Source: a virus (taxonomy: Duplodnaviria; Caudoviricetes). From it: a stretch of 64,000 bases of DNA. The translations under genes and the position numbers were made by a program. Below the pieces are notes generated by a model. That model was not told the origin of the DNA and ran no database searches. It worked only from the letters and a program-made list of their open reading frames with translations. Where the stretch lies: the IMG/VR virus record IMGVR_UViG_3300020045_001617, positions 7,107 through 71,106 of that record; one strand, 5' to 3'. This document shows positions 10,812-11,127 of the stretch, one piece after another (the first letter of the stretch is position 1; the number at the start of each line of letters is the position of its first letter).

Positions 10812-10853
10812 TAAAGAAAAACCCCCGACGCCGGGAATGGAGCGTCGGGGGTT
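10812..10853 (-). terminator. Strong intrinsic terminator (minus strand)
   Basis: 12-bp stem AACCCCCGACGC/GCGTCGGGGGTT; U-tract only on the minus strand. Confidence 0.75.
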
Positions 10854-10900
10854 CTCGTAGGCCGCGCCACACCGGGAGGGAAGTGCGGGGCCAGCGTTGT
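10812..10900 (-). ncRNA. Putative ~90-nt small RNA with an anti-SD loop
   Basis: Minus-strand TTGACA(10935-10930)-N17-TAGATA(10912-10907) promoter; hairpin with loop UUCCCUCCCG; strong intrinsic terminator; no credible ORF. Confidence 0.5.
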
Positions 10901-11127
10901 GGAGGTTATCTACTGCGACACGTTGCGGGTGTCAACCGATTCGTGAAAAGCCCCAGAACAGGTGAATCCTGAACCGGGGCGGCGTTGTCGTAAGTGAAAA
11001 AGGTCTTCGTGCCGCCTCACCGCATGATCCGGGGAACACTCATCGCCGCCTCCTTTACCGTGGTTGACGATCTGAACGTAACACGGGCAGGGCTTGACCA
11101 TCAACCGGTAATCGCCTAATCACTCGA

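Follow-up and report, generated by a model that had tools for sequence, protein, structure and literature searches.

The cuckoo group of bacterial small RNAs, in the part of its description drawn on here, includes ar14 (RF02344), the Sinorhizobium C14/NfeR1 family, together with CcsR1-4 (RSs0680a-d) of Rhodobacter sphaeroides and NfeR1 (SmelC397) of Sinorhizobium meliloti (PMC4615179). Its members are built from two to four adjacent hairpins of 24-50 nt, each with a helix of at least 6 bp and a loop of 9-27 nt, joined by linkers of at most 10 nt with no multiloop; the stems are very variable, every loop carries CCUCCUCCC or a listed variant that is read as an anti-Shine-Dalgarno motif, and the genes lie in conserved neighbourhoods on the chromosome or a plasmid of Rhizobiales and Rhodobacterales (same part of PMC4615179). 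That part also names RNAs of other bacteria in which C-rich unpaired loops are presumed to act on G-rich ribosome-binding sites, namely RNAIII of Staphylococcus aureus, RsaE/RoxS (UCCC) and sX13 of Xanthomonas (PMC4615179).

A further candidate small RNA, the int-alpA RNA motif (RF02996), fills the int-to-alpA slot in a mobile element, the slot also held by the RNA described below. Temperate elements also carry structured RNAs such as P4 CI and P1/P7 C4, which arise by processing of the operon under their control and pair, over long and specific sites, with leader or ribosome-site sequences. To our knowledge, few phage-encoded regulatory RNAs have been described outside enterobacterial and Gram-positive model phages, and we know of none for temperate phages of the alphaproteobacterial-type group considered here.

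Here we analysed a 64,000-nt window of an uncultured temperate phage, covering bases 7107-71106 of an IMG/VR virus record of 71,106 bp (complete by CheckV), in which the spacer between int and alpA holds a predicted small RNA (sRNA) gene. The original prediction of a phage sRNA exposing an anti-Shine-Dalgarno-like loop was upheld for the RNA itself, six homologs of which keep the -35 element, the hairpins and an unpaired CUCCC, and failed for the target it named, which pairs no better than expected by chance.

Results

Genomic setting of the int-alpA spacer

Read from left to right, the region around the sRNA holds two pectate-lyase-like spike genes, an integrase gene, a 389-bp spacer, an AlpA-family gene and packaging genes, with a DUF1441 small-terminase-like gene and a lambda gpA-type large terminase past alpA (Table 1); farther left in the record lie a family-B DNA polymerase, a helicase and an HTH_3 protein. 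Because the nearest cultured terminase relatives (~50% identity) come from phages of Sinorhizobium, Loktanella and Ruegeria and the distant integrase relatives from Sphingomonadales, the host is likely alphaproteobacterial. The closest integrase relatives (P0002-P0004) are 74-82% identical. Integrase relatives have tRNA-Met or the 3' end of the tmRNA immediately upstream of int, which argues for an attP upstream of int here too, at ~9366-9567. We considered an attP within the int-alpA spacer and ruled it out on the same placement, and the spacer is free for another function.

A rightward promoter block, near-identical in four of the related phages described below (L003, L004, L095 and L104), opens the spacer module in five of six phages (L024 is without it) and is the predicted driver of alpA and the packaging operon. 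It stands back-to-back with a leftward -35 element. L096 has two copies of the block separated by 2.6 kb, and in that contig it would drive a queE-like radical-SAM gene and not alpA. The first ATG of the alpA ORF (11128) lies only 5 nt past the predicted -10 of this promoter, and a later ATG (11155) has GGAG 12 nt upstream; judged by where the promoter block lies and by comparison with L003, ATG 11155 is probably the true start. Elsewhere in the window, a segmented inverted repeat (55142-57976 against 60143-64000) comprises six arm pairs of 84-245 nt that are 90-98% complementary, which makes the two divergent early operons partial mirror images around ~59.0 kb and could reflect genuine duplication of early-gene cassettes or an artefact of assembly.

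Table 1. Positions of the elements in and around the int-alpA spacer, numbered from the first base of the window.
Feature	Positions	Strand	Basis and remarks
P4-type tyrosine integrase gene (int)	9584..10738	+	Pfam Arm-DNA-bind_3, Phage_int_M and Phage_integrase; convergent with the sRNA
UAGGG motif	10805..10809	-	12 nt past the T2 stem; kept in 6/6 homologs
Predicted sRNA, ~88 nt	10813..10900	-	Folds and covariance model R1; start placed ~7 nt past the -10, end at the U-tract
Rho-independent terminator T2	10813..10853	-	Stem 10822-10851, U-tract 10813-10821
Hairpin H1	10860..10892	-	Apical loop UUCCCUCCCG (10873-10882), the presumed seed
-10-like TAGATA of sRNA promoter P2	10907..10912	-	17 nt past the -35
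-35 TTGACA of P2	10930..10935	-	Read from sequence; TTGAC invariant in 6/6 homologs
Terminator T1 of RNA-1	10946..10980	-	RNAalifold consensus helix with compensatory changes; single-sequence folds agree
AGGAGGCGGC and 8-codon ORF	11017..11054	-	AGGAGGCGGC begins at 11054; ATG 11043 to TGA 11017, MSVPRIMR
Candidate leftward promoter P1 (TTGATG, 18 nt, TACGTT)	11075..11104	-	Predicted; kept in five homologs (TACGTT, TACGCT, TAGGTT and others)
Rightward promoter block (TTGACC, 17 nt, TAATCA, two GATTAG-type repeats)	11093..11122	+	Unique within the window
AlpA-family regulator/excisionase gene (alpA)	11128..11358	+	Pfam Phage_AlpA, E = 4.7e-10

Anatomy of the predicted sRNA gene

The elements from which the sRNA had been proposed, namely a minus-strand TTGACA-N17-TAGATA promoter, a hairpin CCGCAC-UUCCCUCCCG-GUGUGG, a 12-bp terminator with a U-tract and a length of about 90 nt with no ORF, are all present, with the reservation that the -10 is weak. 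TAGATA agrees with the E. coli consensus TATAAT at three of six positions and lacks the final T, which is why a simple promoter scan does not call P2; what argues for P2 is its conservation, and not the window sequence taken by itself. No ORF of at least 30 aa was found inside 10813-10900.

Hairpin H1 has a lower stem of GGCC (10892-10889) on GGCC (10863-10860), a CGC bulge on its 3' side, and an upper stem of CCGCAC (10888-10883) on GUGUGG (10872-10867) that closes the C-rich loop. The terminator T2 is formed by CCCCCGACGC (10851-10842) and GCGUCGGGGG (10831-10822) around the loop UCCAUUCCCG (10841-10832), with ten G/C-rich pairs and two A-U pairs in its helix, and runs into the U-tract UUUUUCUUU (10821-10813). 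Folding a 92-nt RNA reproduced H1 and T2 at -46.1 kcal/mol (z = -4.8), a stability equalled by none of 200 shuffles. CCCUCCC in the H1 loop is unpaired with a probability of 0.95. The G:U pairs of H1 and the U-tract are compatible with the minus strand only.

Two further candidates near the sRNA gene were rejected. An 81-aa minus-strand ORF past T2 (10554-10799) is antisense to the 3' end of int and shrinks to 14-20 codons in relatives, and a plus-strand promoter built on a conserved CCCTA motif has its -35 in the window only and is absent from L095 and L104.

Six related phages share the unit

Relatives were recovered by integrase-guided and pattern-guided scans of contigs, with L095 and L104 found through the conserved promoter and Shine-Dalgarno blocks, and a homologous unit is present in at least six phages: the window phage, L095, L104, L004 (equivalent to L096/L097), L003 and L024 (equivalent to L011 and a provirus by IMG/VR classification). 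Their integrases, where known, are 49-59% identical (L003 55%, L004 52%, L024 49%). Other searches returned little: the cultured-phage collection, searched at the DNA level, had no match for the spacer and, for the integrase, just a short one to a Rhodobacter phage; the H1 loop region, scanned as an exact pattern, had none in viral or genome contigs; and integrase scans had none in viral contigs with a single protein and none in genome contigs with an alignment.

All six phages carry, on the strand opposite int, one common order of AGGAGGCGGC with an ORF of 8-9 codons, T1, TTGAC(A/C/T), a hairpin with a C-rich loop, and T2. The -35 core is invariant and lies 11-15 nt past T1, and the sequence of the P2 spacer is not conserved; at the -10 position homologs have TAGGTA, TAGACG, TATCTG (within GCTATATC) or TTATCA, and none is recognisable in L024. 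Since an invariant -35 follows directly behind a good terminator, the sRNA gene is probably a transcription unit of its own, with its own promoter and terminator, a claim we hold with somewhat less confidence than that of an RNA gene as such.

The H1 stems are unrelated in sequence, being CCGCAC/GUGUGG in the window, CGACAC/GUGUUG in L095, GACC-GAGCG/CGCUC-GGUC in L104, CACAGCAG/CUGCU-GUG in L004, GAGCCAGCG/CGCUGGCUC in L003 and GAGG-GAGG/CCUC-CUUC in L024. The loops that they close, listed in the same order, are UUCCCUCCCG, GCCCUCCCU, CUUCCCCUCCCUGAGC, CCCUCCCU, UUCCCCACUCCCUUU and UUCCCCCUG. CUCCC stands inside an open loop in every homolog, extended to CCCUCCC in four; the H1 loop of L024 is without it, and the motif sits instead in the terminator loop, UUACCUCCCCG. 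Each of the six RNAs folds as H1 plus T2 (z = -4.5 to -6.6), with the C-rich word unpaired at probabilities of 0.94-1.0.

A covariance model, R1, was built from five of the copies with L024 left out; it scores 88 bits at the window locus and found the untrained L024 copy at the homologous position (E = 3.7e-6). When all six sequences were aligned by the model, 79% of the cells at paired positions could pair, compared with 35-49% in slid controls, and eight pairs changed on both sides, values reached by none of 500 shuffles. The T2 helix alone has 95% of cells pairing and four pairs with compensatory changes. These counts come from six sequences of one clade, few for formal covariation statistics, and understate the support for H1, because its stems vary in length and align imperfectly.

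Of the marks of trans-acting base-pairing sRNAs with an anti-Shine-Dalgarno seed, the locus combines a predicted promoter of its own with a Rho-independent terminator and no ORF, and holds a conserved single-stranded presumed seed within a covarying structure. From this conservation we consider it highly probable that the locus is a real, strand-specific gene for a structured RNA.

Past T2, UAGGG recurs at 10-13 nt in all six homologs, and the sequence farther downstream is unrelated among them. Between T2 and the int stop, on the sRNA strand, L003 has a tRNA-Thr gene (4712-4787, minus strand) and L004 (~5140-5500) tRNA-like fragments with a GGGTTCGAATCCC T-arm, so that the spacer has the appearance of a small island of RNA genes.

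A small unit, RNA-1, lies upstream

Ahead of the sRNA gene, candidate promoter P1 stands back-to-back with the alpA promoter and would drive a short RNA, RNA-1, that ends at T1. AGGAGGCGGC is invariant in the six homologs and is followed by mini-ORFs reading MSVPRIMR, MSLSRNER, MNDPRNER, MIYPRNAR, MHHRNRIVP and MRKFSRMNG, with a consensus of about M-x-x-P-R-N-x-R. Their fifth codon encodes Arg in four of six (CGG, CGU, CGA, CGU), and this synonymous variation hints that the mini-ORF may be translated. RNAalifold pairs GGAGG with a pyrimidine stretch past the mini-ORF stop, a pairing that shows no covariation. RNA-1 could be a leader peptide/attenuator or a tiny-peptide RNA. As a target of the sRNA it was tried and rejected, the best duplexes reaching -6 to -12.5 kcal/mol at a site that differs between phages.

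Comparison with known RNA families

No Rfam family matched anywhere in the window at gathering thresholds. Under relaxed thresholds the best likeness was to ar14, at 28.9 bits (E = 0.002) for the window and 32.5 bits for L095 (E = 0.002-0.007 for the two) against a gathering threshold of 58.8, and the other four homologs (L003, L004, L104 and L024) had no ar14 match at E <= 10. The likeness to cuckoo RNAs that had been proposed therefore stands as the nearest one in Rfam and does not amount to membership.

That likeness is one of architecture, with adjacent hairpins, variable stems, a conserved C-rich anti-Shine-Dalgarno-like loop and a last hairpin that serves as terminator. H1 (33 nt, 10-11 bp), T2 (~30-34 nt) and the 8-nt linker lie within the cuckoo size limits in the part of the description used here, with the H1 loop (8-10 nt) borderline. 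The motif sets the two apart: in that same part every cuckoo loop has CCUCCUCCC or a variant, whereas the phage RNA usually has CCCUCCC or CUCCC(U) in one loop (in the window CCCUCCC in H1 and UCCAUUCCC in T2), and exact CCUCCUCCC occurs in none of the six homologs. The phage RNA is also phage-borne and lies beside an integrase, whereas cuckoo RNAs belong to Rhizobiales and Rhodobacterales chromosomes.

Other families are more distant. The int-alpA RNA motif shares the position, yet it scores 14.1 bits against a threshold of 35.8 (E = 4.4) and aligns with the terminator only. To RNAIII, RsaE and sX13 the likeness lies in the presumed mechanism; there is no sequence relationship, and these RNAs are chromosomal, from other hosts and of other architectures (sX13 is among the weak Rfam matches, at 14.5 bits). 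The original prediction had also pointed to immunity RNAs of P4-like elements. P4 has the same integrase type as this phage, but the C4/P4 CI antisense RNA (RF01695) is absent from the matches at E <= 10 across 10600-11250, and we found nothing comparable to the processing and long specific pairing of those RNAs. The sRNA would thus work like a cuckoo-type anti-Shine-Dalgarno sRNA and falls outside every curated family, and it looks like a new family of an sRNA design already known.

Hairpins with a (U)CCCUCCC(U) loop followed by a terminator were also seen in unrelated viral contigs (L107, L106, L109, L116, L118 and L112), which had been picked by a pattern demanding the motif and the terminator and not the hairpin. 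Such hairpins lie at 7428-7520 of L109 (minus strand), after a 71-aa gene and convergent with a 2103-aa gene, and at 682-777 of L112 (plus strand).

Ribosome sites as candidate targets

The ribosome sites of the window phage are split, with (U)AGGGAG(U)CCGUAAC-type sites in the early region (~42000-64000) and AAGGA/AGGAG sites in the structural region (11128-41000). Counted over crudely called ORFs, GGGAG lies upstream of 25 of 58 in the early region versus 1 of 40 in the late region, where AAGGA/AGGAG sites occur instead, and many early sites are stereotyped as UAGGGAGUCCGUAAC-AUG. AGGGAG and GGGAGU are also the top enriched words ahead of ATG-ORFs in four related phages (G000-G003), at 10-14-fold.

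The core of these words is complementary to CUCCC. Four of the loops contain CUCCCU, and that of L003 contains CACUCCCU, an 8-nt complement of the AGGGAGUG site type (G000-G002); the window loop matches ordinary early sites over 5 nt only. The earlier statement that most early genes have a GGGAG site pairing with the loop is hence roughly right about the sites and reduces to five nucleotides of pairing. In G000, G002 and G003 the 6-nt matches to start regions are in no excess over shuffled C/U-rich probes (G001, p ~0.03). The complementarity between GGGAG and CUCCC across the class is real but short.

The single target named at the outset, a nine-of-nine loop pairing at 61078-61086, exists as a pairing at 61077-61085 (GGGAGGGAG; eight Watson-Crick pairs and one G:U), 8 nt ahead of an ATG (61094) joined to the preceding stop in an ATGA overlap. 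Across the phage start regions the best loop duplex has -18.5 kcal/mol, and 30 composition-matched shuffles of the loop average -19.8 and reach -24.3. A search of two related records found no homolog of the 68-aa early ORF that begins at 61094, and the ORF falls into no PHROG or Pfam family; GGGAGGG sites in relatives do not lie at ribosome sites. Because shuffled probes do equally well or better and the gene has no homolog in those two records, this target is unsupported.

Discussion

We propose that a housekeeping-type promoter, TTGACA-N17-TAGATA, would give rise to an ~88-nt transcript consisting of a hairpin that exposes a C-rich loop, with CUCCC at its core and CCCUCCC in the window phage, followed by a Rho-independent terminator. 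This loop would be the working part, and most likely pairs with the G-rich Shine-Dalgarno regions (GGGAG / GGAGG) of mRNAs and blocks ribosome entry in the manner of sRNAs of the cuckoo/ar14, RsaE and RNAIII type. The candidate targets are host messages and, of more interest, the phage's own early genes, whose ribosome sites share AGGGAG(U). A role in lysogeny, as suggested at the outset, is speculative. On the present computational evidence, we put the chance that the sRNA is such a trans-acting translational repressor at about even. A more specific version, in which the sRNA shuts off early genes by masking (U)AGGGAG(U) with its CUCCC(U) loop, AAGGA-type structural genes escape and RNA-1 (through AGGAGGCGGC) acts as sensor or decoy, we regard as unlikely. 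In T4, the RegB nuclease acts on GGAG early ribosome sites, and a shut-off of this kind would make the sRNA its RNA counterpart.

The same elements may be read in cis, with P1, the mini-ORF, T1, H1 and T2 as a series of attenuators along a single leftward transcript that controls the genes behind them. These would be a 92-aa gene in L024 and tRNA genes in L003 and L004, with no gene left to control in the window phage, and the C-rich loops would pair with a downstream UAGGG(A)GG ribosome site. In L024 the 92-aa gene, with the site UAGGGAGGUG, starts 8-10 nt past the U-tract of T2, whose loop, ACCUCCC, is the exact 7-nt complement of that gene's GGGAGGU; UAGGG keeps a fixed distance past T2 in all six phages (in L024 as part of UAGGGAGGUG), and a mini-ORF and terminator placed upstream resemble a classical leader peptide attenuator. 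Yet five of the six phages have no conserved ORF past T2, and L104, L004 and L003 do not keep the complementarity of loop and downstream motif; as terminators T1 and T2 are both strong, with good U-tracts, and they enclose an invariant -35. We think a cis-acting leader improbable.

The last of these features also weighs on a simpler account, in which T1 and T2 insulate transcription by stopping the convergent int transcript and leftward transcripts diverging from the late promoter, and H1 is incidental or stabilising, its loop having no pairing role: a pure terminator needs no invariant -35 in front, nor a second hairpin whose loop is kept while the stem is rewritten five times. The setting would suit insulation, since operons converge on one side of the unit and diverge on the other and T2 lies 77 nt from the int stop codon with an A-tract on its other side, as in two-way terminators, and loop-target pairing no better than that of shuffled probes agrees with a loop that pairs with nothing. 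On the plus strand, however, just two U follow the hairpin, which makes T2 a poor terminator for int, and we rate insulation as quite unlikely. That weak side is the starting point of a reading in which int transcripts run through T2, are fully complementary to the sRNA and decay on pairing, as in lambda, where sib retroregulation limits int. In the window, L095 and L104 the sRNA converges on int, whose probable 3' untranslated region it overlaps; in the other phages int is not adjacent, being separated by ~370-470 nt with tRNA genes or fragments (L003, L004) or by two genes (L024), and an antisense role leaves the loop-specific conservation unexplained. We consider it very improbable.

Repression in trans through the loop would extend the cuckoo-style anti-Shine-Dalgarno design to a phage, in an sRNA that is conserved, compact and readily testable. 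Together with the split between early and late ribosome sites, it suggests the hypothesis that translation could be the level at which a phage schedules or silences an entire class of genes.
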